A stretch of DNA of 64,000 nt, taken from the NCBI GenBank assembly GCA_046261835.1, contig JBHEOA010000176.1:8588-72587 (forward strand). Direction: 5' to 3'. This stretch comes from Gemmatimonadota bacterium. GTDB lineage: Bacteria > Gemmatimonadota > Gemmatimonadetes > JACCXV01 > JAHWKZ01. Position numbers and translations under genes: made by a program. The notes below the pieces were generated by a model. It was not told the origin of the DNA. It did not search any database and saw nothing but the letters and a program-made list of their open reading frames with translations. Below are positions 1,375 to 22,594 of this stretch, one piece after another. Every line of letters begins with the position of its first letter. Within the stretch, counting starts at the first letter, position 1.

Positions 1375-1399
1375 CCAGAGGCCTGGAGGAGGTTCGCAG

Positions 1400-2782
1400 A
1401 TGAGAGCAAGCTGGAAGCGGACCGCCCGGGCTCTGGCCCTGGCGGTCCTGGTCAGCGGGACGGCTGCGTGCGACTGGCTCATCAGCCCGACGGAGTCGAA
1501 CCCGAACGTCGTCGCCGACGCGACGCTCGACCAGCTGTTCGTGTCGGTCCAGCTCAACGCGTGGTTCATCGCCGAGGGCGATCTGAGCCGCTTCGCGGCC
1601 GTGTGGCTGCAACAGATGGCCGGGATGCAGGACCGGCAGTTCGGGCTCATCCACAGCTACGACATCGTGGAGGACGACGGCGGCGACGCCTTCAACACCA
1701 CCTACACGGGCGGCGGCCTCGTCGACATCGTGCGGGCGATCGATCTGGCCACCGAGCGCCCCGAGGCGGCCGGCCGGGTGTACGCCGGGATCCTCAAGGT
1801 CCATCAGGCGTTCATGATCGGGACCATCGCGAGCGTCCATGGCGACGTTCCCTTCTCCGAGGCGGTCAACCCCGAGATCGCCGAGCCCGCGCTCGACGAT
1901 CAGGCGGCGGTCTACGCCGCGGTCCAGGCCCTCCTGGACGAAGCGATCGCCGACCTCCAGAGCGGGGAGGGCGCCGGCCCGGGCGCCATCGACTTCTCGT
2001 TCGGCGGCAACGCCGCACAGTGGGTCGCCGTGGCCAACACGCTCAAGGCGCGCTTCCACGCTCACTGGATGGAGACGGACCCGGGCCGAGCCGCGCAGGT
2101 TCTCGCCGCGGCCAACAGCGGGATCCGTACGGCTGCCGGCAACTGGCGCGCGCTCCACTCGACGACCGCGACCGAGCAGAATCTCTGGAACCAGTTCATG
2201 GGGGACCGCCCCAACTACATCCAGGCGGGCGCGTTCCTCGTCGACCTGCTCCTGGCGCGAGACGATCCGCGGGTCGCGAAGTACTACGAGCCGAACGCGG
2301 ACGGCGAGTTCGTCGGCAGCCCCGTCAACGAGGAAGACGTGACCGCGTCGAACCTGGCGCTATGCGCGGGATGTGCGGGCGCCCAGGATTTCGGCTTCGT
2401 GCTCGCCTCGTGCGAAGAGAACGCCGGGCTGGCGGCCGAGGCGGCTTTCCGGCAGGGGGGCGCGGCGGCGGCCCAGCCGTGGATCGACGAGCTGATCCAG
2501 TGCTCGTCCACGTTCTGGGGAGTCGACGTTCCCCCGGCCCAGCAGCCGCTCACGCTCGAGGAGATCATCCTCCAGAAGTACATGGCGCTGTTCCTGAGCC
2601 ATGAGATCTGGAGCGACTACAAGCGGACGTGCTTCCCGGCGGTCGAGACGTTTGCGGGGAGGGAGATCCCCCGGCGGCTCTACTACCCCTTCGCGGAGCG
2701 CCAGGCGAATACGAACGTTCCCGAGCCCGCGGAGCAGGACGCACAACCGTTCAATGACAACGACCCGAACCCCTGTCCGTAG
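1400..2782 (+). CDS. SusD/RagB-family nutrient-binding outer-membrane lipoprotein
   Basis: ATG is preceded by GGAGGAGG. The signal peptide has a lipobox (LVSGTAAC). The gene is about 460 aa and sits directly downstream of the SusC-like gene. Confidence 0.75.
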   Translation: MRASWKRTARALALAVLVSGTAACDWLISPTESNPNVVADATLDQLFVSVQLNAWFIAEGDLSRFAAVWLQQMAGMQDRQFGLIHSYDIVEDDGGDAFNTTYTGGGLVDIVRAIDLATERPEAAGRVYAGILKVHQAFMIGTIASVHGDVPFSEAVNPEIAEPALDDQAAVYAAVQALLDEAIADLQSGEGAGPGAIDFSFGGNAAQWVAVANTLKARFHAHWMETDPGRAAQVLAAANSGIRTAAGNWRALHSTTATEQNLWNQFMGDRPNYIQAGAFLVDLLLARDDPRVAKYYEPNADGEFVGSPVNEEDVTASNLALCAGCAGAQDFGFVLASCEENAGLAAEAAFRQGGAAAAQPWIDELIQCSSTFWGVDVPPAQQPLTLEEIILQKYMALFLSHEIWSDYKRTCFPAVETFAGREIPRRLYYPFAERQANTNVPEPAEQDAQPFNDNDPNPCP

Positions 2783-2789
2783 GAGGGGA

Positions 2790-3167
2790 TTCGGGGGTCC
2801 AGCCCTTCGCTCCATCCTGCCGGTCGCGCTGTCGCTCGTGGCGGCATGCGCGACCGGCGTCGGGGCGGAGCGCCCCGCCCACCAGATCGTGGTCGAAGTC
2901 GTCAACGACCTCGTCCCACCCCGAAGTGTGACGATCCAGATGCTGGCCAGCGATCGTGTCACCCGCACGTTGGGAACGGTGGGAGCCGGGGAGACGCGCA
3001 GATTCTCGTTCCGCGAGCGATTGCTCGGCGGGGCCTACCGCATGACGGCCCGGATCGATCAAGGGAACGAGATGGCCTCGGAGGTCTTCACGCTCTTTCC
3101 GAACGCGCACGTCTTCTGGGACCTGAGAAGGAACCTCCTGACGGTCGGATCGCAGGGAGGGATGTGA
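2790..3167 (+). CDS. small secreted lipoprotein of unknown function (start codon unresolved)
   Basis: Protein-like translation with lipoprotein signal ...ALRSILPVALSLVAACATG, stop TGA at 3165-3167. AGGAGG lies at 2781-2786, but there is no in-frame ATG/GTG/TTG upstream of the signal peptide. The only candidates are CTG at 2817 or ATC at 2814. The alternative frame (2846 ORF) is Arg-rich junk. Confidence 0.45.
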   Translation, partial: FGGPALRSILPVALSLVAACATGVGAERPAHQIVVEVVNDLVPPRSVTIQMLASDRVTRTLGTVGAGETRRFSFRERLLGGAYRMTARIDQGNEMASEVFTLFPNAHVFWDLRRNLLTVGSQGGM

Positions 3168-3613
3168 GCCGCCTCGGGATCCTCGCGGTGGGATGCCTCG
3201 CCGTCGCCGGGTCGGCCTGCTACCGCTACACTCCCGTCGAGACGGACGCCCCGATCGAGCGCGGGAGGGCGATCCGTGCGTGGCTCGAGCGCCCGACGGA
3301 CGTCCGGCTGACCGAGCTCACCGCGAACGGGGCCCGCGAGGTGCGCGGCGAGGTGATCGGCTGGCGGGGCGACTCGCTGGCTCTGTCGGTCTTCTGGGTG
3401 GTGACGCAGACCCAGTACGAGCATCGGGGTCGGGGCGAGACCGTCCTGATCGCCGGCGACAACATCGCCCGGCTGGAGAAGAAGGAGATCGACCCCGCGC
3501 GCACCGGCGGCTTGACCGCCGGGATCGTCGCCCTGACGGCGGCCGCGGGCTATGCCGTTTCCGGGGGCGGCGGCGGAGACGAGGGCGACAACGGGGGAAT
3601 CCCGCCCCAGTAG
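3164..3613 (+). CDS. small secreted lipoprotein of unknown function
   Basis: GTG at 3164 overlaps the upstream stop (GTGA). Signal VSRLGILAVGCLAVAGSAC has a lipobox. The C-terminus is Gly-rich. Confidence 0.5.
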   Translation: MSRLGILAVGCLAVAGSACYRYTPVETDAPIERGRAIRAWLERPTDVRLTELTANGAREVRGEVIGWRGDSLALSVFWVVTQTQYEHRGRGETVLIAGDNIARLEKKEIDPARTGGLTAGIVALTAAAGYAVSGGGGGDEGDNGGIPPQ

Positions 3614-3634
3614 ATGGCGAGGAGGTCCGAGCCC

Positions 3635-5023
3635 ATGCTGGTGCGACAGGTCAAGACGAGGAATATCGCGTCGGCCTTCGTCGTAGGGCTTCTGCTGGCG
3701 GCGTGCGGCGGTCGCGACCTCGGCGAGAGCCCGGGCGCGGCGCTCGACGCCGAGCTCCTCCAGCTCATGAGCCGCGCTTCGGAGACCGGCGATCCCTCCT
3801 GGTTCGCGCTTCCCTCCCCCGACGAGTACGACCGGATCCCGCAGGATCCCAAGAACCCCTTGACGCGTGCCAAGGTCGAGCTGGGGCGGCTCCTGTTCCA
3901 CGATACGGCGCTCGAACGCGATCCGAGGCTGCCGCCCGGCGCGGGCAGGGTTTCGTGCGCGAGCTGCCACTTCGCCCAGGCGGGCTTCCAGGCGGGCATC
4001 CCCCAGGGAGTCGGAGAGGGGGCGTTCGGTTTCGGCCGCCGCGGCGAGCAGCGACGGATCGACGACAGCTATCCGCCCGATTCGGTCGACGTTCAGGCGT
4101 TCCGGACCCCGACCGTCCTCAACATAGCCTTCCAGATCGTCCTGGGCTGGTCGGGACAATGGGGCGCGGTGGGCCCCAACGTGGGGACCAAGTACTCGTG
4201 GATGGGGGGAGCGGCCCCGAACCGGCTAGGCTTCCAGGGCGTCGAGTCGCAGGCGATCGCCGCCCTCGACACCCACGGCCTCTCCGTAGAGGACGGCTTC
4301 TTCGACGAGCTGCCCGAATACCGGCGGCTCTTCGACGAGGCTTTTCCCGAGGTTCCCGAGTACCGGCGGTACACCGACCGTGTGGCGGCCCTGGCGATCG
4401 CGGCCTACCAGCGCACGGTTCTGACCAACCAGGCGCCCTTCCAGCGCTGGCTGCGGGGGGACCGGAGCGCCATGGCCACCCCCGAGAAGCGGGGGGCGGT
4501 CCTGTTCTTCGGCGAGGCCGGCTGCGTCACGTGCCACACGGGGCCCGCCCTCAACTCCATGCAGTTCGCCGCGCTCGGCATGAACGACCTGTATGACCGT
4601 CCCGACGTGATCGCTCCCTCGCATGCTCCGGACTCGCTGGCGCGCCGCGGTCGCGGAGGGTTCACCCGGCGGCCGGACGACGACTACGCCTACAAGGTCC
4701 CCCAGCTCTACAACCTCGCCGATTCGCCCTTCTACGGGCACGGAGCCTCCTTCACCAGCGTGCGCGAGGTCGTCGAGTACAAGAACCGCGCGGCGCCGCA
4801 GAAGCCGATTCCACGCGAGCGACTCGCGCCGGAGTTCCGGCCGTTGGGGCTGGACGACGGAGCGGTCACCGCGATCGTCACCTTTCTGAGCCGTAGCCTG
4901 CAGGATCCGAACATCGTCCGGTACGTACCGTCGAGCGTGCTTTCCGGCCGCTGCTTCCCCAACGACGACCCTCAGTCCCGGCTCGATCTCGAATGCCCGC
5001 CTCTCGAGACCACCTCGCGGTGA
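3635..5023 (+). CDS. di-heme cytochrome c peroxidase (CCP/MauG family), lipoprotein
   Basis: Two CxxCH heme motifs (CASCH, CVTCH). The size and spacing are typical of bacterial di-heme CCP. ATG at 3635 has GAGGAGG 9 nt upstream, and there is a lipobox (LLLAACGG). An alternative ATG lies at 3614. Confidence 0.85.
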   Translation: MLVRQVKTRNIASAFVVGLLLAACGGRDLGESPGAALDAELLQLMSRASETGDPSWFALPSPDEYDRIPQDPKNPLTRAKVELGRLLFHDTALERDPRLPPGAGRVSCASCHFAQAGFQAGIPQGVGEGAFGFGRRGEQRRIDDSYPPDSVDVQAFRTPTVLNIAFQIVLGWSGQWGAVGPNVGTKYSWMGGAAPNRLGFQGVESQAIAALDTHGLSVEDGFFDELPEYRRLFDEAFPEVPEYRRYTDRVAALAIAAYQRTVLTNQAPFQRWLRGDRSAMATPEKRGAVLFFGEAGCVTCHTGPALNSMQFAALGMNDLYDRPDVIAPSHAPDSLARRGRGGFTRRPDDDYAYKVPQLYNLADSPFYGHGASFTSVREVVEYKNRAAPQKPIPRERLAPEFRPLGLDDGAVTAIVTFLSRSLQDPNIVRYVPSSVLSGRCFPNDDPQSRLDLECPPLETTSR

Positions 5024-6711
5024 GGCGGGCGGCGGGTCTCGGCGCGGCCATCGCAGGGCTGGTCCTCGGCGGGTCCCCCGCCCTGGCGCAGGGATTCGAC
5101 GAGGTGGGCCGCGAGGCCGGGATCGACCACGTGGCCGTCGACCCCCACCGGATCGCGGGCGGGGTCGCCTTCTTCGACTACGACGGTGACGGCGACGACG
5201 ACCTGTGGCTCACGGGCGGGCGGAACCCCGATCGCCTCTACCGGAACCGTGGCGACGGCACGTTCGATGACGTCACCGAGGCGGCGGGCCTCGGCTTCCT
5301 CGCCGACATACCGACCGTCGGCGTCGTCACCGGCGACATCGACAACGACGGCGATCGCGACGTCTTCGTCACCACCTTCGAGGGATATCCCAACATCCTC
5401 CTGCGCAACGAGGGGGACGGCACCTTCACCGACGTCTCGGAAGCAGCGGGCGTGGCCGGGCCGCCGGTCTGGAGCACGGCGGCGGCCTTCGGCGACTACG
5501 ACCTCGACGGCTTCCTCGACCTCTACGTCGGCAACTACGCCACCTACGACGACCTGCCGTACGACGAGCACTTGACCGGCGGGATCCCCAACTTCCTCTA
5601 CCGCAACCGCGGCGACGGCACGTTCGAGGACGTCGCCGAGCGGCTCGGCGTGGACGATCCGGACGGCCTCGCGCTGGCAGTGGCGTTTACCGACTACGAC
5701 GGCGATGCCGACGTCGACATCTGGGTGGCCAACGACTTCGGGTACCTCTTCGAGGAGGACAAGCTCTACCGGAACGACGGGGGCCGCTTCGTCGAGGTGG
5801 GGGAGGAGCTGGGGGTCGACAACGAGATCAACGCCATGGGGATCGCCGCCGGCGACTATGACGAGGACGGCGACCTCGATTACTACGTCACCAACATGGC
5901 CCGGAACCGGCTGCACGAGAACCTCCAGCGCGGCCACGCGAGCGGGGAAGGAAGCGGTCGCTTCGTCGACGTCGCCCGCCAGAAGGGCCTGGACGACGAG
6001 TGGGCGACGAGCTGGGGGGCGGTGTTCGCCGACGTCGACAACGACGGGCACCTCGATCTGCTGCTGGCCAACGGGCGCGTGCTGCCGAGCTACAACATGG
6101 AGTACATGGACCACCTCCATCGGCTGGTGGAGCCGCACGCGAATCGCTTGTGGCGCGGTGACGGGAAGGGCGGCTTCGTGGAGGTTGCGAGCGAGATGGG
6201 GGTCGCCGACACGACGCGCGGACGCGGTCTCGCCTGGTCCGACATCGACGGTGACGGCGACGTCGACCTCGCGGTTTCGGTACTCGTTGTCGAGGGGCCG
6301 ACGATGGACCATGCGCTGCTGTACCGGAACGAGGGCCACCCCGGCCGCAATTGGCTCAACGTGCGGCTCCGAGGCACGTCGGCCAACCGGGACGCCTTCG
6401 GGAGCCGGGTGCGGGTCGTCGCGGCCGAACGCAGCCTGATCCGCGAGATCGACGGCGGATCGAGCTACCTCTCACAAAGCTCCAGCGTCGCCCACTTCGG
6501 TTTGGGCTCGCGCGCTGTCGCCGACAGCCTGGTCGTCACGTGGCCCGGCGGGAAGATCGAGGTCCTGACCGACCTTCCGGTGAACCGGACCGTCGAGATC
6601 GTCGAAGGTGTTCTGGCGGCGGGAGAACCGGCGCCCGAGACGCCGGGAAGCGAGTCGTGGGGCAAGACGCCGGCTGCCGAACCCGCCGAGCGGCGCCGGG
6701 TCGAGCCCTAG
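5020..6711 (+). CDS. FG-GAP/VCBS-repeat protein with C-terminal ASPIC/UnbV domain (CRTAC1-like), secreted
   Basis: Repeated FxDxDGDGxxD calcium-binding FG-GAP motifs. The C-terminus (...NWLNVRLRG...GSRVRV...SSYLSQSS...FGLG) is typical of ASPIC/UnbV. GTG at 5020 overlaps the CCP stop (GTGA) and gives a signal peptide. An alternative ATG is at 4993. Confidence 0.8.
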   Translation: MRRAAGLGAAIAGLVLGGSPALAQGFDEVGREAGIDHVAVDPHRIAGGVAFFDYDGDGDDDLWLTGGRNPDRLYRNRGDGTFDDVTEAAGLGFLADIPTVGVVTGDIDNDGDRDVFVTTFEGYPNILLRNEGDGTFTDVSEAAGVAGPPVWSTAAAFGDYDLDGFLDLYVGNYATYDDLPYDEHLTGGIPNFLYRNRGDGTFEDVAERLGVDDPDGLALAVAFTDYDGDADVDIWVANDFGYLFEEDKLYRNDGGRFVEVGEELGVDNEINAMGIAAGDYDEDGDLDYYVTNMARNRLHENLQRGHASGEGSGRFVDVARQKGLDDEWATSWGAVFADVDNDGHLDLLLANGRVLPSYNMEYMDHLHRLVEPHANRLWRGDGKGGFVEVASEMGVADTTRGRGLAWSDIDGDGDVDLAVSVLVVEGPTMDHALLYRNEGHPGRNWLNVRLRGTSANRDAFGSRVRVVAAERSLIREIDGGSSYLSQSSSVAHFGLGSRAVADSLVVTWPGGKIEVLTDLPVNRTVEIVEGVLAAGEPAPETPGSESWGKTPAAEPAERRRVEP

Positions 6712-6733
6712 TAAACCCGCTCTTACCGATCCG

Positions 6734-8905
6734 CTACTCCGGTCGCCGCTGACGGTATCGCTCCAGGCTGTGCCTGAGCCGGTCGGCCAGGTCGCGAGCG
6801 CCGACCGCGGAAGCGAGCGCGAGCGCCCGCTCGGCCGTCTCCGCCGCGTGCCCGAACTCGCCGGCCGAAGCCTGCGCCGCGGCGAGGACGGCCAGGATGG
6901 CCGGGTCGGGCCGCTCGGTCAGCGCGGCGGCGCGCTCGGCGAGCCGCACCGCTTCGGCCGGCCTGCGGATCGCCGGGTCGGGATGTCGGGCGAGGAGCTC
7001 GGCCAGCGCAATGAGCGGGGCCGGCCAGCGGGGGTCCAGGCGGATCGCTTCACGCAGCTCGGCGATTGCCTCGGGGAACCGCCCTGTCGATCCCAGAGCG
7101 AACCCCAGCCCCAGCCTCGCGCGGGCGTCGTCGGGCTCGATTTCCAGCCCGCGCCGATAGTGCTCGATCGCCTCGGCAGGCTTTCCCCGCGCGCGAAGGA
7201 CCTCGGCGAGCCGCACGTGTGCGGGCGCGAGCTTCGGGTCGGCGTCGATCGCCAGGCGATAGAAGCGAATCGCCTCGTCCACCTCGCCCTTAGCCTCGAG
7301 CGCTATCGCGAGGTTGTGGCTCGCCCGGGCGTAGCCGGGATCGGTTTCGAGCGCCAGGCGGTAGTGCCGGACCGCCTCGTCGAGGCGTCCCACCGTCTGG
7401 AGGGCGATCCCCAGGTTGTTGTGTGCGCGCGCGTAGCGGGGGGCGAGCCGGAGCGCCTCCCGGTAGCGGGCGATCGCTTCCTCGTGCCGCCCCAGCGCCG
7501 CGAGCACCATCCCCAGCTCGTAATGCGCGCGTTCGTCTTCCGCCCGCCACCGGACCGCGGCCTCGAGTCCCTGGCGATGGATCGAGAGCGACTTGAGCCA
7601 TGCGACCCGCGCCAGCTCGGCCGATTCGTCAGGCTCTACCGCGACCACCTGGATCATGAGATCCGCCATCTCATCGGTCGAGTGAGGGCCGTAGCGGACG
7701 TGCTCGGGGGCCCGGCGCGGGTTGCGCGGATTGGCCGTCGAGTTGTCGTAGGTGTACCGCATCGTGAGGACGGTGCCGCGCGGCAGCCGCACCGGCTCGC
7801 GGTAGCGGTACTCGTCCTGCCAGTTGAAGTCCCAGCGCGGGATGTGGAGGAGCCAGCGCGTGCCGCCATCGGGAAGCACTGCGACGACTGACATCTCCTC
7901 GCCCAGGTAGTGGGCGTGCGGATAGAGCCCGAGCACCTCGACCTCGACCGGCAGGACCAGCGAATCCTCGACCGCGTAGGATCGCGCCCCCGGCGGGATG
8001 TCGAGCGATTCCGATCCCAGCCGCAGGAGGACCGCCGTGCGGGCCGGCGGACGCTCGGCGAAGTGGAGGCCGACCTGCCCTCGCACCGCCGCCGGCCGCT
8101 CGATCGGCCGGAGGTGGAGCTGAAGCACGAGGTCGCTCCCCCGCTCGAGCCGCCAGGCTATGTCGGGGGGGATGCGCGTCGGCACCTTCCCGGGGGTCCA
8201 GCCGAGGAAGAATCCGGTCGGCTGGCGCGCCTCGCTCGCCGGTCCCATGCCGTCGAATCCCGGTCCCGGGTCCTCGCTGTCCCGCCGGCGGGACGAGTCG
8301 CTCGGATCGACCATGAGCGTCGCGTGGTGAACGAGCTTAGGAGCGTCGAACCTGAGCTCGACCGCCTCGACCCACCGATCGGTCTCGATCGGGACCGCGA
8401 TCACGAAGTTGCGGAACTCTTCGTGTGCGCCCGCCTCGCCGTGCTCGCCCATGACCGGATAGGGTTCCGGCATGGCGACCACGAGATCGGGCTCGCCGAG
8501 CTGCCACCCCCCGGGGAACTCGGGCGGGAGGGGCTCCTCGGCGGGATCGCCCCGCGGCATGCCCGCCTCAACCCACCGACGTATCGCCTCGATCGCTTCG
8601 TCGGTCAGCCGCCGCTCGTTGGCGAACGCGTGCCGGGGCCGATCGGGGAGCCAGGGCGGCATGACGCGCGCCTGCGTCAACGCGGCGATCAGGGGACCGC
8701 GGGCACGGGCGTCTTCATAGGACAGAAGGTCGAACGGCGCCGGGCCCTCGGGGCGATGGCAGACCGCGCAGTTCCGGTAGAGGATCGGTGCGATGTCGCG
8801 GGCGAAGGTCGGCTCGTCGCCGGGCGGCTTCCAAGCGGCGAGCGCTACGGAAGCCACGGCGGGCGCGGCGACGAGGAGGAGACGTGCGATCCGGGGAGGT
8901 TTCAC
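6734..8905 (-). CDS. secreted fusion protein: N-terminal cytochrome c domain (CxxCH), copper type-II monooxygenase (PHM/DBH C-terminal)-like domain, C-terminal TPR repeats
   Basis: CAVCH heme motif. The central region (...HAHYLGEEM...WDFNWQDEY...YTYDNS) resembles the Cu2-monooxygenase C-terminal fold. The C-terminus has many 34-aa TPR repeats. GTG at 8905 gives a textbook signal peptide (KPPRIARLLLVAAPAVASVALA). The maximal ORF extends to 9022. Confidence 0.7.
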   Translation of the reverse strand: MKPPRIARLLLVAAPAVASVALAAWKPPGDEPTFARDIAPILYRNCAVCHRPEGPAPFDLLSYEDARARGPLIAALTQARVMPPWLPDRPRHAFANERRLTDEAIEAIRRWVEAGMPRGDPAEEPLPPEFPGGWQLGEPDLVVAMPEPYPVMGEHGEAGAHEEFRNFVIAVPIETDRWVEAVELRFDAPKLVHHATLMVDPSDSSRRRDSEDPGPGFDGMGPASEARQPTGFFLGWTPGKVPTRIPPDIAWRLERGSDLVLQLHLRPIERPAAVRGQVGLHFAERPPARTAVLLRLGSESLDIPPGARSYAVEDSLVLPVEVEVLGLYPHAHYLGEEMSVVAVLPDGGTRWLLHIPRWDFNWQDEYRYREPVRLPRGTVLTMRYTYDNSTANPRNPRRAPEHVRYGPHSTDEMADLMIQVVAVEPDESAELARVAWLKSLSIHRQGLEAAVRWRAEDERAHYELGMVLAALGRHEEAIARYREALRLAPRYARAHNNLGIALQTVGRLDEAVRHYRLALETDPGYARASHNLAIALEAKGEVDEAIRFYRLAIDADPKLAPAHVRLAEVLRARGKPAEAIEHYRRGLEIEPDDARARLGLGFALGSTGRFPEAIAELREAIRLDPRWPAPLIALAELLARHPDPAIRRPAEAVRLAERAAALTERPDPAILAVLAAAQASAGEFGHAAETAERALALASAVGARDLADRLRHSLERYRQRRPE

Positions 8906-9024
8906 GGGAGGGGTGCTCGCGCGAGGGTCCAAGCCAACTTTCGCTTCGACAAGATAACCCGGCGGAGGGGTCCTCGCCTGCGCGCGGCCGCGGTCCATGC
9001 TTCCGTTGCAGTCACGGCCCATCT

Positions 9025-12000
9025 ATGTTGTCCCGCGACTTGAGACTCCCTCACCTTCGCTCTCTCGGCTGGAGCGCGGCCGCCTGGGTTTTCTTCTGTC
9101 CGCCGGCTGCGGCCCAGGTGGCTCCCGACCACGCCTGGCGGACGGTCGAGACCGCTCACGTCCGCGTCACGTATCCCGCCCCCCGCGATTCGCTGGGAGA
9201 GCGAACTGCGCGCGCGGCCGAGCGGGCGTGGGAGGGATTGGCCCGGCTGGCGCCGCCGCCGGGGGGGCGGGTCGAGGTCGTCCTATCCGACGACGTGGAC
9301 GTCGCCAACGCATTCGCCTCGGTTTCCCCCTATCCCTGGATCGTGGTCTACGTCCACCCCCCCTATGACAACCTCGACCTGGCCGAATACTCCGATTGGC
9401 TCGAGGTCGTCCTGGCCCACGAGATGGCCCACATCGTCCACCTCGACCAGGCGCGCGGGCTCGGCCGCTTCCTGCGGCAGATCTTCGGTCGAATCCCGGC
9501 CGCGGGTTGGCCGCTGTTCCCGCACGTCACCACACCGACCTGGACGATCGAGGGGCTGGCGGTCCGGTACGAGACCGCGCTGACGGGAAGCGGCCGGCTC
9601 GCGGGGACGGTCACGGAGATGATCGTCCGGGCCGCGGCGGTCGAGGACGAGATCCCCGATCTCGGGTTCGTGACCGGCGATCCCGCGGTGTGGCCGGCCG
9701 GGAACACGCGCTACGCCTTCGGCGGCGAGTTCCTCGGCTGGCTGGCCGCGCGGCACGGCGACGAAGCGTTCGAGCAGTACGTCCGGGAGCTCGCGGGCGA
9801 CCCGCTCCCGTTCCGCGTCGATCGCGCCGCCGAGCGCGCATTCGGCGTCACGTTCTCGGATGCGTGGGAGGCGTGGCGGGTCGAGGCGACCGCGCGCAAT
9901 CGAGCGGCGGCCGACTCGCTGGCGCGCGTCGCTCCGCTCACCCGTGCCGAGCGGCTCATGAACCACGCATACTGGGCGCTCTGGCCGCGCTGGTCCCCCG
10001 ACGGCGCGACGATCGCCTACGCCGCGTACGACGGCCGCCGCGACGTCCACCTGGCGCGGATCGACGCCGGGTCGGGCGCGGAGATCGGCTCGACCCGCGT
10101 ACCGGGTCTGGGGGTGCCCTCGTGGCGATCCGACGGATCGCTGGTCGTGGGCGGCTTCCAGTGGCAGGGGCCCTATCGCCGGTGGGACGACCTTTGGGTC
10201 ATCCCCGGCGAGGGGCCGGCGCGACCGCTGACCGACGCGGCGCGCCTCTCCCATCCCGATGTCGGCCCCGGCGGGGCGATCGTGGCGGTCCAGACGGAGG
10301 CCGGCACCAATCGGCTGGTCGTGCTGGAGCCCGGGAACGGCGAGCCACGGGCGGTCACGGCGCTCGATGCCGGCGTTCACTGGGCATGGCCGCGCTGGTC
10401 TCCCGACGGATCGCGAATCGCGGTCTCGCGGTGGCGCGGCAGGGGCTTCGACGTCGTGGTTCTCGACCCCGCCGGCGGGCTGGAACGCGAAATCGCGGCC
10501 GACGGAGCGCTGAACCTCGCCCCTGCCTGGTCCCCCGACGGCGGGTGGCTCGTCTTCGGATCCGACCGGACCGGGATCGCCAACCTCTACGCCTTCGATC
10601 TCGGGGGGCGCCGCGGGCTCCGCCAGGTTACCCATGTTGGCGGGGGCGCGTTCTTCCCGGACGTCTCACCCGACGGGCGCTGGATCGCCTTCGCCGGCTA
10701 TCACCACGACGGCTGGGCGATCGAGCGTGTGCCGTTCGATCCGGCGGCATGGTTCGACCCCCACCCGGCACGAGACGCGAGCATCCCACGCGCGTGGAGC
10801 GCTGCATCTACCGGGAGTCTCGCGGCGGCCCCCTCCGACGTTCTGCCATCCCGCCGCAAGCAGGAACCGATCCACGTTTCGGTGCCGCGCCCCTACGCGC
10901 CGTGGCCCACCCTGGTGCCGCGCTACTGGCTCCCGATCGTGGAAGCCGGCGAGGAGGTGCGGGGAAGGGAGCTCCTCGGCCCCGGCGTCGGCGCGGCCAC
11001 GTCCGCCGTCGACGCGGTCGGGCGTCACGCGTACGGGGCGGCCTCCACGGTCGACGTGGAGCACGGTCGGGTCGAGGCCTTCGTCCGGTACAGGAATGCG
11101 GTGCTCGGTCGCCCGATCCTCGATCTCACGGCCGCTCAGACCTGGGAGTTCGCGGGGTTCGCCTTGCCGGCTTCGGAGGAGGAGACGGCGCAGCCGGGCG
11201 ATACCCTGTTCGCTCTCGGACGCAACCGCGAGATCGCTCTCTTTGCCACCATCCCCTTCCGTCATCCCTTTCGCTCCGCGACGCTCGCGATGGGGGCGGG
11301 GTTGCTCGAGGAGCGCCTCGTCCTGCTCGAGCCCGATCTCACGGAGAGCCGCCGGTTCCGCCTCGACGACCCCAGGGCGCTCCTTCCCGAGGCGTTTGGT
11401 TCGGGGACCTTCTCGACCGCGCGCACCTTCGCCTTCTCGATCAGCCCCGAGAACGGCATCGCGGGCTCGGCCAGGGGGGAGTGGCGCTTCGACCCGGCCG
11501 AGGAGAATCGCGCTCGCCGCGAGGCGACCGCGCAGGTCGCGGTCTACCGGGCGCTCGGGCGACCGTGGGGGTTCGCGCGCACGGTGGCGGCCCTCCGCGC
11601 GAGCGGCGGAGTGGTGCGGGGGCTCGGTGCGGGCGATGGCCACTTCGCGCTCGGCGGAGCGAGCGGCGAAGGGCTTGGGGTCGCAGGGTTGACCGGCCTG
11701 GGCGCGCAACGGTTCCTGCTCCCGGTGCGTGGGTACGTCCGCGGCGAGCGGCGCGGCCGTACGGCGTGGTCGGCGAGCGCCGAGATCCGCTTTCCGCTCG
11801 CGCTGCTCCAGAAGGGATGGGGGCTCCGGCCGCTCTTCCTCGACCGGCTGGCGGGGACGGTCTTCGTCGACGCCGGCGATGCCTGGGATCCGTGCCGCCC
11901 CGGCGCGGAGTGCACCGCGTCGCTGGAGCCTCTCGTGTCGAGCGGCGTGGAGCTGCTCCTCGATGTGACCGTCTTCTACCGGCTGCCTCTCACGCTGCGG

Positions 12001-12072
12001 TTCGGCGTCGCACGGACCCTCGTCGATCCGGTCGGCACCACGGCCTACCTGCGCCTGGGCCGCTCGTTCTAG
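9025..12072 (+). CDS. large outer-membrane protein: N-terminal HExxH (gluzincin-like) domain, multiple PD40/TolB-like beta-propeller repeats, Omp85/BamA-like C-terminal barrel (paralog A)
   Basis: ATG at 9025 with a signal peptide. HEMAH motif followed by downstream EG. Repeated WSPDG...IA(FY) PD40 motifs. The C-terminus (...FVDAGDAWD...LRFGVARTL...YLRLGRSF) ends in Phe, as in Omp85 barrels. The 8788 upstream extension is Arg-rich junk. Confidence 0.75.
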   Translation: MLSRDLRLPHLRSLGWSAAAWVFFCPPAAAQVAPDHAWRTVETAHVRVTYPAPRDSLGERTARAAERAWEGLARLAPPPGGRVEVVLSDDVDVANAFASVSPYPWIVVYVHPPYDNLDLAEYSDWLEVVLAHEMAHIVHLDQARGLGRFLRQIFGRIPAAGWPLFPHVTTPTWTIEGLAVRYETALTGSGRLAGTVTEMIVRAAAVEDEIPDLGFVTGDPAVWPAGNTRYAFGGEFLGWLAARHGDEAFEQYVRELAGDPLPFRVDRAAERAFGVTFSDAWEAWRVEATARNRAAADSLARVAPLTRAERLMNHAYWALWPRWSPDGATIAYAAYDGRRDVHLARIDAGSGAEIGSTRVPGLGVPSWRSDGSLVVGGFQWQGPYRRWDDLWVIPGEGPARPLTDAARLSHPDVGPGGAIVAVQTEAGTNRLVVLEPGNGEPRAVTALDAGVHWAWPRWSPDGSRIAVSRWRGRGFDVVVLDPAGGLEREIAADGALNLAPAWSPDGGWLVFGSDRTGIANLYAFDLGGRRGLRQVTHVGGGAFFPDVSPDGRWIAFAGYHHDGWAIERVPFDPAAWFDPHPARDASIPRAWSAASTGSLAAAPSDVLPSRRKQEPIHVSVPRPYAPWPTLVPRYWLPIVEAGEEVRGRELLGPGVGAATSAVDAVGRHAYGAASTVDVEHGRVEAFVRYRNAVLGRPILDLTAAQTWEFAGFALPASEEETAQPGDTLFALGRNREIALFATIPFRHPFRSATLAMGAGLLEERLVLLEPDLTESRRFRLDDPRALLPEAFGSGTFSTARTFAFSISPENGIAGSARGEWRFDPAEENRARREATAQVAVYRALGRPWGFARTVAALRASGGVVRGLGAGDGHFALGGASGEGLGVAGLTGLGAQRFLLPVRGYVRGERRGRTAWSASAEIRFPLALLQKGWGLRPLFLDRLAGTVFVDAGDAWDPCRPGAECTASLEPLVSSGVELLLDVTVFYRLPLTLRFGVARTLVDPVGTTAYLRLGRSF

Positions 12073-12832: not shown

Positions 12833-14227
12833 TTAGCGCGGTGCCGGAGCGGGGAAGACGACCACGCTTTCGTGCCCGTCCTTGTCGACCGATGCGACGC
12901 CGAAGAACCAGTTGTCAACGACCAGGTTCTCCACCACCGCTTCGGTCGCCTTCCCCACCCATCGCCAGTGGTTCCAGGTCGGGGAGTCGGTGCGGCGCCA
13001 GTACACCTTGTAACCGGCGAGGGCGGGATCGGAGACCGGCGCCCAGGAGAGCCGCGCCGAGGGCTCGACCGCTCCCGCGATCATCACCGAATCGGGTGGG
13101 GCCGGGGCCCATGCCAGCGAGGCAAGCGTCGCGACGTTGAGCGCCGTCACCGCCGCCGCGTAGTCGAACTCGACTTCGTCCGGAACGTCGCCGTACTCGA
13201 CCCCGTCCTCGACCCGGAGGTCCTGGTGCTGGCGCCGCCAGTCCTCGTGAGCCTCGGTCAACCGGACCGCCGGAAAGCCCAGGTCGTTGAACGGACGATG
13301 ATCGCCTCCACGCCCGAAACGATCGAGGCGGTAGATCATCATGACGTCCAGGTTGGAGAAATACCGTTCCGCGATCCGGTCGACATAGCGCGCGAGCTGA
13401 CGGGAAGGTCCGTCGACCTCGCCGCCGTAGAACCGCAACTGACGCAGGTTGTCCGGTGTGGTCGTGGCCGGCGGGCTCTCCGAAAAGACGCGGACGGTGG
13501 TCCCGTCGACGACGCCGTCCTGGCCCTGGATGTTGCCGATGATGTCGTTGTTGAAGACGCCTTCGATGCGCCAGCCTTCCTGATGGGCGACCTCGGCCAG
13601 GTGCTGACCGCCGTAGAGGCCCTGCTCCTCACCGGCCAGGGCGGCGAAGACGATCGAGGCTCCGTAAGGACGTCCCGCGGAGGTCAGAACGCGCGCCGCC
13701 TCGAGCACGGCGGCGGTGCCGCTGGCATCGTCGTTGGCGCCCGGGGCGTCGCTGGTCGCGTCCAGAGCATCGGTGGCGCGCGAATCGTAATGGCCGCTGA
13801 TGACGAGCACGCGTTCGGGGTCGCGGGACCCGCGCAGCGTGGCGACGACGTTGACGACCCACGTGGGCCGCGGGATCCGCGCGCCGCTGTCGACGAGCGA
13901 GCGATGGTATTCAACTTCGAGGCAGCCGCCGCACGCCGCTGAGACGCGATCGAGCTCGGCCTTGATCCAGCGACGGGCCGCGCCGATGCCCCGCGTTTCG
14001 CTCGTCGTGTCGCTCAACGTGTGGCGCGTGCCGAACGCGGCGAGCGTCCGGATGTCGTGTTCGATTCGCGCCGCCGAGACAGAGTCGATGATCGCGCTCA
14101 GCCGCTCGTCACTCAGCGGCGGCACCGTCTCTTGGGCGGACGCCAGCGGCGGCAGGACGAGGCACGCGGCCGCGGCGATCGCCGCTGCCTCCGGGAAGAC
14201 GAAGTAGACGATGCGCCCCAATGACAT
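12833..14227 (-). CDS. M28-family zinc aminopeptidase with C-terminal fibronectin type III-like domain, secreted
   Basis: Signal peptide present. Motifs HYDS, DDASG, GEEQGLYG and DH are typical of M28 peptidases. The C-terminus (...YKVYWRRTDS...) is FN3-like. Confidence 0.85.
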   Translation of the reverse strand: MSLGRIVYFVFPEAAAIAAAACLVLPPLASAQETVPPLSDERLSAIIDSVSAARIEHDIRTLAAFGTRHTLSDTTSETRGIGAARRWIKAELDRVSAACGGCLEVEYHRSLVDSGARIPRPTWVVNVVATLRGSRDPERVLVISGHYDSRATDALDATSDAPGANDDASGTAAVLEAARVLTSAGRPYGASIVFAALAGEEQGLYGGQHLAEVAHQEGWRIEGVFNNDIIGNIQGQDGVVDGTTVRVFSESPPATTTPDNLRQLRFYGGEVDGPSRQLARYVDRIAERYFSNLDVMMIYRLDRFGRGGDHRPFNDLGFPAVRLTEAHEDWRRQHQDLRVEDGVEYGDVPDEVEFDYAAAVTALNVATLASLAWAPAPPDSVMIAGAVEPSARLSWAPVSDPALAGYKVYWRRTDSPTWNHWRWVGKATEAVVENLVVDNWFFGVASVDKDGHESVVVFPAPAPR

Positions 14228-14289
14228 ACGACGCTAGGGAGTGTAATGTGGGATCCTCTTTTCTCGCCACGTCCTCAGGAGATCCAGCC

Positions 14290-15609
14290 ATGCGCCGCTT
14301 CGCGCTTCGATTCTTCTCGATCCTGGTCGTCCAGCTCATGGCGGATGGCGTCCCGTGGCACGTGACGCAGGCTCGCGCCCAGGAACCGGCCGAATTCGTT
14401 GGGGAAAGCGAGCTGGTCGTCGTGCGCGCCGCGCGGATGCTCGACGTTGTCTCGGGCGAGATCGTGCCGAACGCGGTCGTCGTGGTGGAAGGAGGCGAGA
14501 TCCGCGAGGTGCATCCCGAAGCGGCGCCGTCCCGCGCGCGGACGATCGACCTCGGTGACCTGACCCTCCTTCCCGGTCTGATCGACGCACATACCCATCT
14601 CGCATACGACCTCGAGGGGGACTGGTCGCATCGCGAGGTGACCGAGGCCACCGCGGAAGGAACGGTGCGTGCTGTGCGGAACGCGCGGCGGACCCTCGAG
14701 GCCGGATTCACGACCGTTCGCGACGTCGGCGCGAGCCCGGGGTTCGTCGACGTGGCCATCATGCGTGGCGTCGAGCGCGGCTGGATCGTGGGACCGCGGG
14801 TCGTCCCGGCGGGCCACAGCCTGGGGATCACCGGCGGGCATTGCGACGCGACCGGCTACATCCCCGGCGTCCTCGAGCTGGGTCCCGAGCAGGGCGTCGC
14901 CGACGGCGTGGACGAGGTCATCCGCGCGGTGCGTTACCAGATCAAGCACGGAGCGCGCGTAATCAAGGTGTGCGCCACCGCCGGCGTCTTGTCCTTCGAG
15001 GAATCGGTCGGAGCCCAGCAGTACACCGAGGACGAGCTGCGCGCCGCGGTCGAGGAAGCCGCGCGCCACGGCATGAAAGTGGCCGCCCACGCCCACGGCA
15101 CGGAGGGGATCAAGGCGGCGATCCGCGCGGGGGTGGCCTCGATCGAGCACGGCTCGCTGATCGACGACGAGGCGGTTGCGATGATGAAGGAGCGCGACGT
15201 CTACCTCGTGCCGACGACTTACCTCGCCGACGCTATCGACCTCGACCTGCTGCCGCCGCCGATCCGCGCCAAGGCGGAGTGGGTTCTGCCACGCGCCAAG
15301 GAGAATCTGCGGCGCGCGATCCGGGCCGGTGTCCCGATCGCGTTCGGGACTGACGCCGCGGTATTCCCCCACGGCGAGAACGCGAAGGAGTTCGCCGCGC
15401 TGGTCGAGCGTGGAATGGCGCCGCTCGAGGCGATCCGCTCGGCGACGATCCACGCCGCCGACCTCCTGGGTGTCGACGATCGCGGCGTGATCGCCGCCGG
15501 CAAACTCGCCGACCTGATCGCCGTGCCTGGAAACCCGCTCCAGGACGTCCACGCACTCGAGAACGTGCGGTTCGTGATGCTGGGAGGCGACGTAGTCAAG
15601 GAGCCTTAA
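14290..15609 (+). CDS. amidohydrolase-family metal-dependent hydrolase (imidazolonepropionase/Xaa-Pro dipeptidase-like), secreted
   Basis: ATG at 14290 with a signal peptide. DAHTHL and HxH...H...D metal-ligand pattern. About 440 aa. Confidence 0.8.
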   Translation: MRRFALRFFSILVVQLMADGVPWHVTQARAQEPAEFVGESELVVVRAARMLDVVSGEIVPNAVVVVEGGEIREVHPEAAPSRARTIDLGDLTLLPGLIDAHTHLAYDLEGDWSHREVTEATAEGTVRAVRNARRTLEAGFTTVRDVGASPGFVDVAIMRGVERGWIVGPRVVPAGHSLGITGGHCDATGYIPGVLELGPEQGVADGVDEVIRAVRYQIKHGARVIKVCATAGVLSFEESVGAQQYTEDELRAAVEEAARHGMKVAAHAHGTEGIKAAIRAGVASIEHGSLIDDEAVAMMKERDVYLVPTTYLADAIDLDLLPPPIRAKAEWVLPRAKENLRRAIRAGVPIAFGTDAAVFPHGENAKEFAALVERGMAPLEAIRSATIHAADLLGVDDRGVIAAGKLADLIAVPGNPLQDVHALENVRFVMLGGDVVKEP

Positions 15610-19711: not shown

Positions 19712-21227
19712 GCGACCGCTCGATCGTCATGACCAAAGGCTCCTGGAACGCGTGGCACCACCGGACTGGGCGAATCCGATTCCGGCGCGGCGCTACCACC
19801 TCGTCGTCGTCGGCGGCGGGACGGCGGGGCTCGTTGCAGCCGCGGGCGCCGCGGGACTGGGCGCGCGTGTGGCGCTCGTCGAACGCGATCGACTGGGGGG
19901 CGACTGCCTCAACACCGGCTGCGTGCCGTCAAAGGCTCTCCTGCGATCGGCCCGCGCCGAGCACGACGTCCGCTCGGCCGGCGCGTTCGGTATTCGCACG
20001 GTGGGGGAGCCGATCGTGGACTTCGGAGCCGTCATGGAGCGGATGCGGCGACTGAGGGCCGAGATCGCACTCCACGATGCGGCCGCCCGTTTTCGCACTC
20101 TCGGGGTCGACGTGTTCCTGGGCGAGGCTCGCTTCACGGGCCGCGACCGGATCGAGGTCCGAGCGAGCGGCGACGGGGCCCGGGCCGAGCTCCGCTTCTG
20201 GCGAGCGGTCGTCGCGACCGGGGCGCAGCCCGTGGTCCCGGCGGTGCCGGGACTCGACGAGGTGGATTTCCTGACCAGCGAGACGTTGTGGTCGCTGACC
20301 GAGCTGCCCGCCCGTATCGCCATCCTGGGCGCGGGACCGATCGGCTGTGAGCTCGCCCAGGCATTCGCGCATTTCGGTGCGCAGGTCGTTCTGGTCGAGC
20401 GCGAAGCGCGAATCCTGCCTCGTGACGATCCCGAGGCTGCAGCCCTCATCGCTGACGCACTCCAGCGGGATGGGATCGAGATCCTCCTCGCTTACGCCCT
20501 CGAACGCGTCGAGTCGAGCCCACCGACGGCGAGGCTCCGTCTCGTGGGTCCCGCGGGTCCCGAGGTCCGCGACGTCGACCGCATCGTGCTGGCGGTCGGA
20601 CGGGAACCGCGCCTCGCGGGACTGGGGCTCGAGCAGGCGGGAGTGGCGCAGGACGGAGGGAAGATCCGCGTCGACGCGGGATTGCGGACGACCAACCGCC
20701 GCGTGTACGCCGCCGGCGACGTCTGTGCCTCAGCGCGCTTCACGCATGTGGCGGACGCTCACGCGCGGGTTGTGGTTCGCAACGCCCTGTTTCCCGGCCG
20801 CGAGCGGGTCGATGTGGGCGCGGTCCCGTGGTGCGTCTTCACCGACCCGGAGCTCGCCCACGTCGGTCACACGGCCGACTCGGCCACGCGCGCAGGAATT
20901 CGAGTCACGACATACACCGAGCCTCTCTCGCTGGTCGATCGGGCGCTACTGGACGGTGAGGATGCGGGTTTTGCGCGGATTCACGTGCGGAAGGGGAGCG
21001 ACGAGATCGTCGGGGCCACGCTGGTGGCGCGTCACGCGGGGGAGACGATCACGGAGATCGCGGTGGCGATCACGGCGGGAATGGGACTCGAGCGGCTCAC
21101 AGGGGTAATCCACCCCTACCCGACTCAGGCCGAGGCCTTTCGAAAGATCGCCGATCAGTTTCGGCGCTCGCGCCTGACGCCCAACGTTCAGCGCCTCCTC
21201 GAGCACTGGTTCTCCCTTCGGGGGTGA
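19704..21227 (+). CDS. class I pyridine nucleotide-disulfide oxidoreductase (dihydrolipoyl dehydrogenase/mercuric reductase-like, no NmerA domain)
   Basis: GGGTAG FAD motif. Redox-active disulfide GGDCLNTGCVPSK. C-terminal dimerisation domain with HPYPTQAE. Overlaps DedA by 8 nt. Confidence 0.85.
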   Translation: MTERPLDRHDQRLLERVAPPDWANPIPARRYHLVVVGGGTAGLVAAAGAAGLGARVALVERDRLGGDCLNTGCVPSKALLRSARAEHDVRSAGAFGIRTVGEPIVDFGAVMERMRRLRAEIALHDAAARFRTLGVDVFLGEARFTGRDRIEVRASGDGARAELRFWRAVVATGAQPVVPAVPGLDEVDFLTSETLWSLTELPARIAILGAGPIGCELAQAFAHFGAQVVLVEREARILPRDDPEAAALIADALQRDGIEILLAYALERVESSPPTARLRLVGPAGPEVRDVDRIVLAVGREPRLAGLGLEQAGVAQDGGKIRVDAGLRTTNRRVYAAGDVCASARFTHVADAHARVVVRNALFPGRERVDVGAVPWCVFTDPELAHVGHTADSATRAGIRVTTYTEPLSLVDRALLDGEDAGFARIHVRKGSDEIVGATLVARHAGETITEIAVAITAGMGLERLTGVIHPYPTQAEAFRKIADQFRRSRLTPNVQRLLEHWFSLRG

Positions 21228-21596
21228 CTACCCCACGCCCTCGACGTACCCCTCGTCGGGATCCTCGCCCCGCCTCAGAGCGCTCTCGATCTTCGGCTGA
21301 AGCTCGCCGGTCTCCAGCATCTCGCGGGTGATGTCGCAGCCACCCAGGAACTCACCGTCCACGTAGACCTGCGGGATCGTCGGCCAGTCGCTGTACTCCT
21401 TGACCGACTCCCATAGCTCAGGGTCCTCCAACACGTCAACGGCATAGAGCTTTCCCTCTGCCCCCGCGCGGCGCAGCGCCTCGACGGTCGCGGCTGAGAA
21501 GCCGCAGCGCGGGAACATCTCGTTTCCCTTCATGAAGATCACCACCGGGTGATCGCGCACGATGTGGTCGAGTCTCTCCTTCATGTCCGAGGTCAT
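21228..21596 (-). CDS. grxD: monothiol glutaredoxin Grx4-type (CGFS)
   Basis: CGFS active site, WPTIPQ and GGCD motifs. ATG at 21596 is preceded by GGAGGG. It forms an ATGA overlap with the bolA stop. Confidence 0.85.
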   Translation of the reverse strand: MTSDMKERLDHIVRDHPVVIFMKGNEMFPRCGFSAATVEALRRAGAEGKLYAVDVLEDPELWESVKEYSDWPTIPQVYVDGEFLGGCDITREMLETGELQPKIESALRRGEDPDEGYVEGVG

Positions 21597-21862
21597 GGGG
21601 TTCCCTCCGTTGGATGTGATACGTGCTGTCCGGGGGTCCACGCCCGGATCGAGAGGGCGTGGATCGTTTCGTCCTGGATCCACACGCGCAGCGGCGCATA
21701 GACCAGCTTATGCCGCTCGATGCGTGACTTCCCCTCGAAAGCGGCCGAAACGACGCGGGCCTCTAGATGATCGTCGGAGCCCGTCAGATCGACGACCTCG
21801 ACGTCCGCATCGGGGAAAGCGCCACGCAATCGCTCGGCCACGCGCTCACGGGTCGTCGACAT
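21593..21862 (-). CDS. bolA: BolA-family protein
   Basis: MSTTRERVAERLRGAFPDADVEVVDLTGSDDHLEARVVSAAFEGKSRIERHKLVY is a clear BolA fold. Alternative upstream start at 21907. Confidence 0.8.
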   Translation of the reverse strand: MSTTRERVAERLRGAFPDADVEVVDLTGSDDHLEARVVSAAFEGKSRIERHKLVYAPLRVWIQDETIHALSIRAWTPGQHVSHPTEGTP

Positions 21863-21913
21863 ACGGCGACCAAGGATAGCCGCACGAAGGCTCGGGATCG
21901 AGGGCAAAACTCG

Positions 21914-21942
21914 TTGACCGGTCGCAGGTTATGGACTATCTT
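21914..21942 (+). promoter_or_regulatory. sigma70-like promoter for the rpsF operon (TTGACC-17-TATCTT)
   Basis: Near-consensus -35 and -10 hexamers with a 17-nt spacer, about 70 nt upstream of the rpsF GTG. Confidence 0.35.
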
Positions 21943-21964
21943 CAATCACTTCCCATCATCCCTG

Positions 21965-21985
21965 TCCGCCCCGCGCGGGGGCGGA
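21965..21985 (+). ncRNA. rpsF 5'-leader hairpin (TCCGCCCC-GCGCG-GGGGCGGA), candidate S6:S18 autoregulatory leader
   Basis: Perfect 8-bp GC stem in the 5' UTR, 27 nt upstream of the start. rpsF leaders bound by S6:S18 have been described in several bacterial phyla. Confidence 0.3.
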
Positions 21986-22011
21986 CCGACCCAGACCGAA
22001 GGGAGCACCGC

Positions 22012-22374: not shown

Positions 22375-22376
22375 TC

Positions 22377-22592: not shown

Positions 22593-22594
22593 GT

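Follow-up and report, generated by a model that had tools for sequence, protein, structure and literature searches.

Background

The Omp85/TpsB superfamily was divided into ten subfamilies by Heinz & Lithgow in 2014 (Front Microbiol 5:370; PMC4104836), one of which was designated 'WD40-like Omp85'. Its members have no POTRA domain; they carry a PD40/TolB-like propeller before the barrel and, foremost, an aminopeptidase- or collagenase-like domain. In that survey the architectures are listed as n copies of PF07676 combined with PF01103 (their Table S2). In the members chosen as representatives, the propeller matched TolB best (2w8b/2ivz), while the entry under 'best aminopeptidase hit' was an M1 enzyme (1z5h, 4kxd, 4fgm) or the collagenase ColH (4ar1; both in their Table S3). 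The same authors proposed that the WD40-like Omp85 proteins are analogous to a fusion of BamA and BamB. Later papers named the subfamily 'WD40 and peptidase domains' and described it as uncharacterised, and Hanson et al. (2024) called Omp85 subfamilies with enzymes in place of POTRA domains "intriguing targets". Here we describe two genes of this kind, termed A and B, in a stretch of 64,000 nucleotides from a Gemmatimonadota genome (the window). We consider it probable that their products are outer-membrane-tethered periplasmic metallopeptidases, and that the A-type is most likely dedicated to turnover of the cell wall (murein).

Several other systems share part of this architecture. PlpD, an Omp85 protein of the patatin-like kind from Pseudomonas aeruginosa, also has an enzyme N-terminal to an Omp85 barrel, and its barrel acts as a scaffold or anchor. 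The enzyme domain was once thought to be exported, but is exclusively periplasmic (PMC11116518). PlpD differs in that its enzyme is a lipase and that it has one POTRA domain; in A and B, the POTRA domain is missing and the enzyme is a metallopeptidase accompanied by a propeller. The M9 collagenases (Vibrio VhaC, Clostridium ColG/ColH) resemble the B-type in their HExxH motif, in the Glu that follows about 28–30 residues later in EGxAEY, and in the Tyr of YRxG. However, A and B have no activator, PKD or collagen-binding domain, and the A-type is more diverged from these enzymes. BepA, YcaL and LoiP are periplasmic zinc metalloproteases of family M48 that are associated with BAM. They belong to the broad enzyme class predicted for A and B and work on the periplasmic side of the outer membrane, but BepA carries TPR repeats in place of the propeller and is not fused to a barrel.

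A PD40-type propeller is also joined to a peptidase in tricorn, DPP-IV and acylaminoacyl peptidase, a likeness reflected in precomputed Pfam matches to Tricorn_N and Tricorn_2nd. These enzymes are serine peptidases with a C-terminal catalytic domain, in contrast to the N-terminal metallopeptidase of A and B. Tricorn protease itself was rejected as an identity: A and B have a single propeller, end in an Omp85 barrel and lack PDZ and S41 domains. TolB, finally, is soluble and has an N-terminal alpha/beta domain that binds TolA, but neither a peptidase nor a barrel.

Two deeply diverged paralogues of the WD40-like Omp85 subfamily

A and B share one plan in the AlphaFold2 (AF2) models: a signal peptide, an N-terminal domain (alpha/beta plus helical), a propeller, a linker and a barrel (Table 1). 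Both models are confident, with a predicted local distance difference test score (pLDDT) of 87.4 and a predicted template modelling score of 0.88 for A, and 79.9 and 0.79, respectively, for B. This three-part organization had been put forward in the original prediction and proved to be real by Pfam, NCBIfam, AF2 and Foldseek. In GenBank, protein A is deposited as MFN2421995.1 ('M48 family metalloprotease', start V32, 984 amino acids (aa)), and an exact look-up identified protein B as MFN2422013.1 ('BamA/TamA family outer membrane protein'). Both entries come from a single contig (75,103 bp) in a metagenome-assembled Gemmatimonadota genome.

By BLASTP, A and B are 26% identical over ~600 residues (E 4e-22). 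We then compared a profile of 42 A-type homologues with one of 44 B-type homologues; the alignments behind them also served for the AF2 models. The two profiles aligned with a probability of 100% (hhalign, E 2.4e-66) over 897 columns from the signal peptide to the C-terminus. Because the alignment runs end to end and includes the barrel, A and B are full-length paralogues. At 80 genome loci collected with the B profile and 80 metagenome loci collected with the A profile, the gene scored higher against its own type in every case (160/160). The two types form two clean, deep orthologous groups within the Gemmatimonadota that go back to an old duplication, as had been supposed from the divergence of the two window copies.

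A and B belong to the WD40-like Omp85 subfamily catalogued in 2014. They agree with it in every point tested and show no architectural difference; as for its aminopeptidase/collagenase-like N-terminal domain, B matches the M9 collagenase 7wss and A is homologous to B. This is a named subfamily, albeit one that is functionally uncharacterised. Three points appear to be new in comparison with the 2014 catalogue: the Gemmatimonadota members split into two groups, their catalytic motifs are invariant, and A-type genes are syntenic with genes for peptidoglycan recycling.

The family is widely distributed. We found more than 6,800 matches for B among the candidates scored, and 843 for A. At E <= 1e-10, the N-terminal domain of B matches 1,985 clusters (50% identity); in the best 150 of these, the full-length proteins mostly measure ~1000–1100 aa, and the domain is N-terminal in nearly all. 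Relatives of the B-type occur in more than 515 species of the GTDB genomes. The 80 best-matching GTDB loci belong mostly to Gemmatimonadota, with some from Eisenbacteria, Latescibacterota and Glassbacteria. We take the B-type to be the older, more widespread and vertically inherited housekeeping form.

The putative catalytic site

Both N-terminal domains contain an HExxH motif that is followed by a Glu in EG(L/M)A. Residues H132, E133, H136, E176 and E183 are invariant in the 42 A-type sequences, and so are H127, E128, H131, E160 and E164 in the 44 B-type sequences. The HExxH motif and the downstream Glu are kept throughout all our alignments (44, 42, 29 and 26 sequences). A further invariant residue is the Tyr of YRFG in B and of YAFG in A, and the B residue pairs with the Tyr of collagenase YRWG. 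The distance from H131 to E160 in B is 29 residues, as in M9 enzymes, and that from H136 to E176 in A is 40. At the level of sequence, both proteins have the gluzincin signature of an HExxH motif with a Glu as putative third zinc ligand further on. This assignment had been made before from the two window sequences and was borne out, with the additional result that the B motifs pair with those of M9 collagenases. The invariance of these residues argues for a clan MA(E) site of the gluzincin type that is intact and under strong purifying selection.

The relationship to M9 is best seen in the B-type. A profile of 29 B-type N-terminal domains matched the Vibrio M9 collagenase 7wss (E 5e-4), with LTHELVH paired to LEHEYVH, WFMEGMAEY to WWSEGVAEY and YRFG to YRWG. 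With E <= 0.01, 27 of these 29 domains matched Peptidase_M9 and all 29 matched BSP. In B itself, weak Pfam matches to Peptidase_M9 and Peptidase_MA_2 cover residues 57–256, and the isolated domain scores just below the gathering thresholds of the two families (25.5 vs 26 and 25.2 vs 32.4 bits, respectively). A has no match to Peptidase_M9 (PF01752). It reaches 22.7–25.4 bits against 20.3 for M48 (PF01435), yet this match is confined to profile positions 7–85 of 186, around HEMAH. Among 26 A-type orthologues, M48 was matched in 2 and Peptidase_MA_2 in 4. Since the A-type N-terminal domains have diverged and so few of them match M48, the 'M48 family' label of A in GenBank is doubtful and probably an over-annotation.

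We also determined the mean identity of the orthologues to the window protein, domain by domain and within each clade. It amounts to 60% for the peptidase, 55% for the propeller and 43% for the barrel in the B clade, and to 47%, 49% and 39%, respectively, in the A clade. The linker has the lowest values of all regions (28% with 24% gaps in the B clade, 31% in the A clade). By this measure, the peptidase and the propeller are the most strongly selected parts in both clades.

Propeller and barrel

Omp85 barrels are recognised by two motifs that were defined in BamA and FhaC, (V/I)RG(F/Y) in loop 6 and (F/G)xDxG in strand 13. Both are present in A and B (Table 1), and their R, G and D residues are either invariant or conserved to at least 90%. 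The DSSP assignment of the AF2 models gave 16 long barrel strands for each protein, and each ends in a Phe; in B this residue (F1061) is at least 90% conserved among the 44 sequences. The original prediction of an Omp85-like barrel with a terminal aromatic residue was correct. Omp85 PF01103 matches B at residues 854–1043 with 42.7 bits (gathering threshold 24); A itself has no match to this family, which is found in A-type orthologues in precomputed annotations. A Foldseek search with the A model returned TolB first, followed by BamA barrels (7nre_A, E 1.9e-7, template modelling score 0.58), and the B profile matched the Omp85 protein 9ccg_A (E 6e-7). By their barrel, PF01103 and the two motifs, the proteins belong to the Omp85/TpsB superfamily.

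No POTRA domain was found in A or B by Pfam, and the AF2 models show a disordered stretch between propeller and barrel. BamA has five and TamA three POTRA domains, and the NCBI name of B was rejected for this reason. Among the NCBIfam models, that for BamA reaches 11.7 bits on A (cut-off 1050) and Omp85_fam reaches 22.7 bits on B (cut-off 200). Identity with TolB was rejected as well: the TolB equivalog model TIGR02800 scores 95.1 and 133.1 bits, far under its cut-off of 343.15, it covers the propeller part only, and the N-terminal domain of TolB is absent.

Gene neighbourhoods of the two types

We examined the surroundings of the A-type gene at 80 metagenome loci, 44 of which have 3 kb or more of upstream sequence. 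At 42 of these 44 loci, one or more of AnmK, MurQ, NagZ, an AmpG-like protein and Amidase_3 are encoded upstream of the A-type gene, and all peptidoglycan-recycling matches (115/115) are on its strand. Amidase_3 lies closest to the A-type gene, on its upstream side, in 38 loci, with 8–862 nucleotides (nt) between the tblastn matches. In most Gemmatimonadota, a murQ-anmK-nagZ-ampG-amidase_3 cluster ends with the A-type gene, all on one strand. For example, a Longimicrobium genome has anmK, a HEAT-repeat gene, nagZ (glycoside hydrolase family 3), a gene for an AmpG-like permease of the major facilitator superfamily, Amidase_3 and then the A-type gene; at another locus (L081), the order is murQ, anmK, A-type gene. 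MurQ, AnmK, NagZ, AmpG-like and Amidase_3 genes were found at 0 of 61 B-type loci.

The B-type genes were examined at the 80 best-matching genome loci in GTDB, 68 of which had upstream sequence that could be screened for rplI. The B-type gene is located downstream of rplI in 56 of these 68, all from Gemmatimonadota; this arrangement was not seen in Eisenbacteria or Latescibacterota. Across the Gemmatimonadota, B-type genes follow rplI/rsfS, and the B gene of the window is preceded by the same genes (Table 1). Outside this phylum, the B-type gene was found after nuo genes or beside glycosyltransferase genes, with no consistent partner.

Gene A of the window is located between a gene for a TPR protein with a cytochrome c motif and an M28 peptidase gene. 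The same arrangement is found around the A gene of a 73%-identical relative (L164), where the neighbourhood from the TPR gene to rpsF recurs. This relative has kept the TPR-A pair, but it is absent from all 80 A-type metagenome loci. At these 80 loci, the A-type gene is never flanked by the TPR gene, by the M28 peptidase gene or by the amidohydrolase gene at 14221–15609, and a DUF885 gene was not found next to the B-type gene at any of the 80 B-type loci. Since the four genes tested do not occur at these 160 other loci, we rejected a functional tie to the TPR, M28, amidohydrolase and DUF885 genes. The original prediction had proposed M28, amidohydrolase and DUF885 proteins as partners; these genes are not conserved, and most A-type loci carry peptidoglycan-recycling genes upstream instead. 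It had also drawn attention to the presence of both copies in one neighbourhood. They are indeed only ~13 kb apart here, but this proximity is specific to the window lineage. Since A has left the peptidoglycan-recycling cluster in that lineage, we regard the proximity as a lineage-specific rearrangement and not as a conserved pairing.

Upstream of the A-type gene of a 60%-identical relative (L165, positions 1–8800), we noticed phage-like genes (for a capsid protein, a head-tail connector and Bbp19) as well as genes for a DDE transposase and for the toxin-antitoxin pair TacA1/GNAT. They may be left from the rearrangement by which A was separated from the peptidoglycan-recycling genes in this lineage.

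Possible function

The precursors of A and B would be exported by Sec, and their N-terminal module would be kept in the periplasm, where a flexible linker of 30–90 residues would tie it to the outer membrane on the inner face. We place the module in the periplasm because the number of barrel strands is even and the topology of Omp85 proteins is standard; a periplasmic module is thus expected from a 16-stranded barrel and was demonstrated for PlpD, the sole enzyme-Omp85 fusion examined. The clan MA zinc metallopeptidase (M9-collagenase-like in B) would pack against the six-bladed TolB-like propeller, which presumably binds, selects or filters the substrate, and the linker would set the reach of the peptidase module towards the wall. 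In this way, A and B could act as periplasmic peptidases anchored in the outer membrane. For the A-type, the synteny points to murein-derived peptides or peptidoglycan-associated material as the leading candidate substrates. A more specific proposal, to which we give only tentative credence, is that the A-type is an unrecognised component of peptidoglycan recycling or turnover, namely an outer-membrane-anchored metallopeptidase for murein or stem peptides, with the barrel turned into an anchor for periplasmic enzymes as in PlpD, while the B-type performs a second, conserved kind of envelope proteolysis. More speculatively, the A-type might form an entry or processing station for muropeptides at the outer membrane.

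Other functions can be envisaged. With its VRGY and xxDxG motifs and its BamA-like structure, the barrel is as would be expected if A and B took part in the biogenesis or quality control of outer-membrane proteins, with the barrel as insertase or dock, the propeller as a BamB-like scaffold and the peptidase attacking stalled or misfolded proteins as BepA does. The BamA-BamB analogy of Heinz & Lithgow, the ties of the zinc metalloproteases BepA, YcaL and LoiP to BAM, and the nature of the B-type as a widespread single housekeeping gene without a metabolic operon partner fit this explanation, too. However, the POTRA domain is missing, which is the element that binds substrates or partners in BamA, TamA and TpsB; the propeller has six blades and resembles that of TolB, not the eight-bladed one of BamB; and the peptidase resembles M9, not M48. 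The synteny of the A-type likewise favours murein recycling over a part in assembling outer-membrane proteins, and we consider a role in their biogenesis or quality control unlikely.

It is less probable still that the proteins are non-catalytic tethers, in which the propeller binds a Pal-like or other peptidoglycan-associated partner and the HExxH domain is a binding module or a regulator, for example an amidase activator comparable to the degenerate peptidases of the NlpD/EnvC type. The amidases of E. coli are activated by catalytically dead, envelope-anchored LytM proteins, Amidase_3 is encoded directly upstream of many A-type genes, and the propeller is nearest to that of TolB. Yet the H, E, H and E residues and the conserved Tyr are invariant in both deeply diverged clades, which would be unexpected in a degenerate domain, and the low TolB equivalog scores and missing TolB N-terminal domain do not fit such a tether either. 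The least probable explanation, in our opinion, is the one given in the original prediction, by which the module reaches the outside of the cell and breaks down extracellular proteins for peptide scavenging, together with the M28 peptidase, the amidohydrolases and the DUF885 protein. M9-like domains typically occur in collagenases that are secreted, and peptidase and amidohydrolase genes are located nearby both in the window and in the 73%-identical relative. This proposal conflicts with the standard Omp85 topology, by which the N-terminus is periplasmic, and with the fate of the PlpD enzyme domain, which stays in the periplasm although export had been assumed. Moreover, a POTRA domain and a TpsA-like partner are both missing, the supposed partner genes do not recur at the 80 A-type loci (M28, amidohydrolase and TPR) and the 80 B-type loci (DUF885) examined, and the B-type adjoins ribosomal-protein genes.

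Some observations weigh against a dedicated periplasmic peptidase of murein turnover. The barrel has retained motifs that are relevant in BamA and TamA and may be more than an anchor. The profile of the A-type N-terminal domains found no significant match among the PDB sequences. A ribonucleotide reductase gene (class I/II) is located downstream of the A-type gene at 45 of the 57 loci with at least 1.5 kb of sequence there, mostly at a distance of ~0.2–1 kb (for example at 11298–13814 of L081). Since this gene has no obvious functional relation to the A-type and is equally conserved, synteny alone is no proof of a shared function, and part of the A-type synteny may reflect phylum-level inheritance and not operon logic. 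In the window, there are no peptidoglycan-recycling genes beside A, so that the link to peptidoglycan rests on the orthologues. We found no functional study of the WD40-like Omp85 subfamily in the literature, nor one of such proteins in publications on Gemmatimonadetes and peptidoglycan recycling. The earlier statement that this is not a characterised system holds in this respect, although the architecture had already been catalogued (PMC4104836).

Features of the window and translation starts

The features of A and B and the genes upstream of B are listed in Table 1. The window has a composition of 66–73% G+C. An Rfam scan of positions 21000–30200 gave no match. Exact look-ups of P0121 and of the L9 gene in the window returned no record.

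Table 1. Positions of the features of genes A and B and of the genes upstream of B in the window
Feature	Position	Strand	Basis or remark
Gene A, A-type WD40-like Omp85 protein	9025–12072	+	1015 aa, ATG start; 100% identical to P0121
A signal peptide, aa 1–31 (PPAAAQ before V)	9025–9117	+	Sequence reading; pLDDT <50 at residues 1–29
A clan-MA metallopeptidase-like domain, aa 38–302	9136–9930	+	AF2 secondary structure; hhalign to B N-terminal domain; weak Pfam M48 and MA_2 matches
A HEMAH, putative zinc-binding/catalytic motif, aa 132–136	9418–9432	+	H132, E133, H136 invariant in 42 sequences and 26 locus translations
A IEGLA motif, E176 putative third zinc ligand	9547–9561	+	E176, G177 invariant; hhalign pairs it with B LEGMAE
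A six-bladed TolB-like PD40 propeller, aa 317–570	9973–10734	+	PD40 x4; TIGR02800 partial match; Foldseek top matches TolB
A flexible linker, aa 571–635	10735–10929	+	pLDDT <50 at residues 585–611; least conserved region
A 16-stranded Omp85-type barrel, aa 636–1015, terminal F	10930–12069	+	DSSP strands; Foldseek; hhalign to B barrel
A VRGY motif (Omp85 loop-6 hallmark), aa 901–904	11725–11736	+	R902, G903 invariant
A FVDAG motif ((F/G)xDxG hallmark), aa 947–951	11863–11877	+	F947, D949 invariant; G951 at least 90% conserved
rpsF	21931–22374		Upstream of B
rpsR	22377–22592		Upstream of B
373-aa polytopic membrane protein	22741–23862		No Pfam match
rplI	23837–24346		Upstream of B
rsfS-like gene	24343–24753		Recognised by eye from translation; next upstream of B
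Gene B, B-type WD40-like Omp85 protein	24872–28057	+	1061 aa, GTG start
B M9-like clan-MA metallopeptidase domain, aa 28–270	24953–25681	+	Collagenase profile match; Pfam matches of orthologues
B HELVH motif, aa 127–131	25250–25264	+	H127, E128, H131 invariant in 44 sequences
B LEGMAE motif, E160 putative third zinc ligand	25346–25363	+	E160, G161, M162, E164 invariant; pairs with collagenase SEGVAEY
B six-bladed TolB-like PD40 propeller, aa 285–565	25724–26566	+	Six PD40 stretches; partial TolB matches
B long disordered Pro/Gly/Arg-rich linker, aa 566–682	26567–26917	+	pLDDT <50 at residues 591–651
B 16-stranded Omp85 barrel, aa 683–1061, terminal F	26918–28054	+	PF01103; DSSP, 16 long strands; profile match 9ccg_A
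B LRGY motif, aa 921–924	27632–27643	+	R922 invariant
B WFDLG motif, aa 966–970	27767–27781	+	D968 invariant

A 'PAxAQ' consensus ahead of the mature N-terminus is common to the 42 A-type orthologues. The GenBank start of A at V32 cuts off this conserved signal peptide, so that the ATG at 9025 is a better fit to the family consensus.

The situation in B is less regular. AF2 gives a low-confidence signal peptide of aa 1–15, and the GTG at 24872, the sole canonical start, leads to a signal peptide without a charged n-region. Most B homologues have signal peptides of 25–35 residues that end in AxAQ before FGKNKVQY; short calls like that of B are found in a few homologues, the closest one included, and P0001, P0009, P0011 and P0013 are close homologues with such a call. 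Upstream of the GTG and in frame with it, we found RRPASLPVRPAIA behind an ACG at 24830, and a Shine-Dalgarno-like GGAAAGGA at 24816–24823 ahead of this ACG. The sequence TTRRPASLPVRPAIA, in frame upstream of B, would complete a normal signal peptide (window 24698–24916). No canonical start codon is present in this in-frame extension. The ACG and the Shine-Dalgarno-like motif, which precede the completing sequence, suggest that B may use a non-canonical start.

The TPR protein encoded next to A (762 aa, 6734–9022, minus strand, divergent from A) carries the CxxCH haem-binding motif CAVCH near its N-terminus. Its called start is only 2 nt away from the start codon of A and is therefore probably over-extended. 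The block at 1–6711 encodes a partial SusC-like TonB-dependent receptor, a SusD-like protein, a di-haem cytochrome c peroxidase (CCP_MauG) and an FG-GAP/ASPIC (UnbV) protein; it is kept in the 73%-identical relative.

Significance

Omp85 proteins are known as machines for protein insertion and translocation, and the enzyme-bearing subfamilies without POTRA domains are an acknowledged blind spot. Genes A and B of the window are ordinary Gemmatimonadota members of one such family and had already been deposited. The family is large, however, and its metallopeptidase site is intact as far as can be read from the sequences. The link of the A-type to peptidoglycan-recycling genes provides a concrete and testable hypothesis for a family that has been without a functional lead since 2014.

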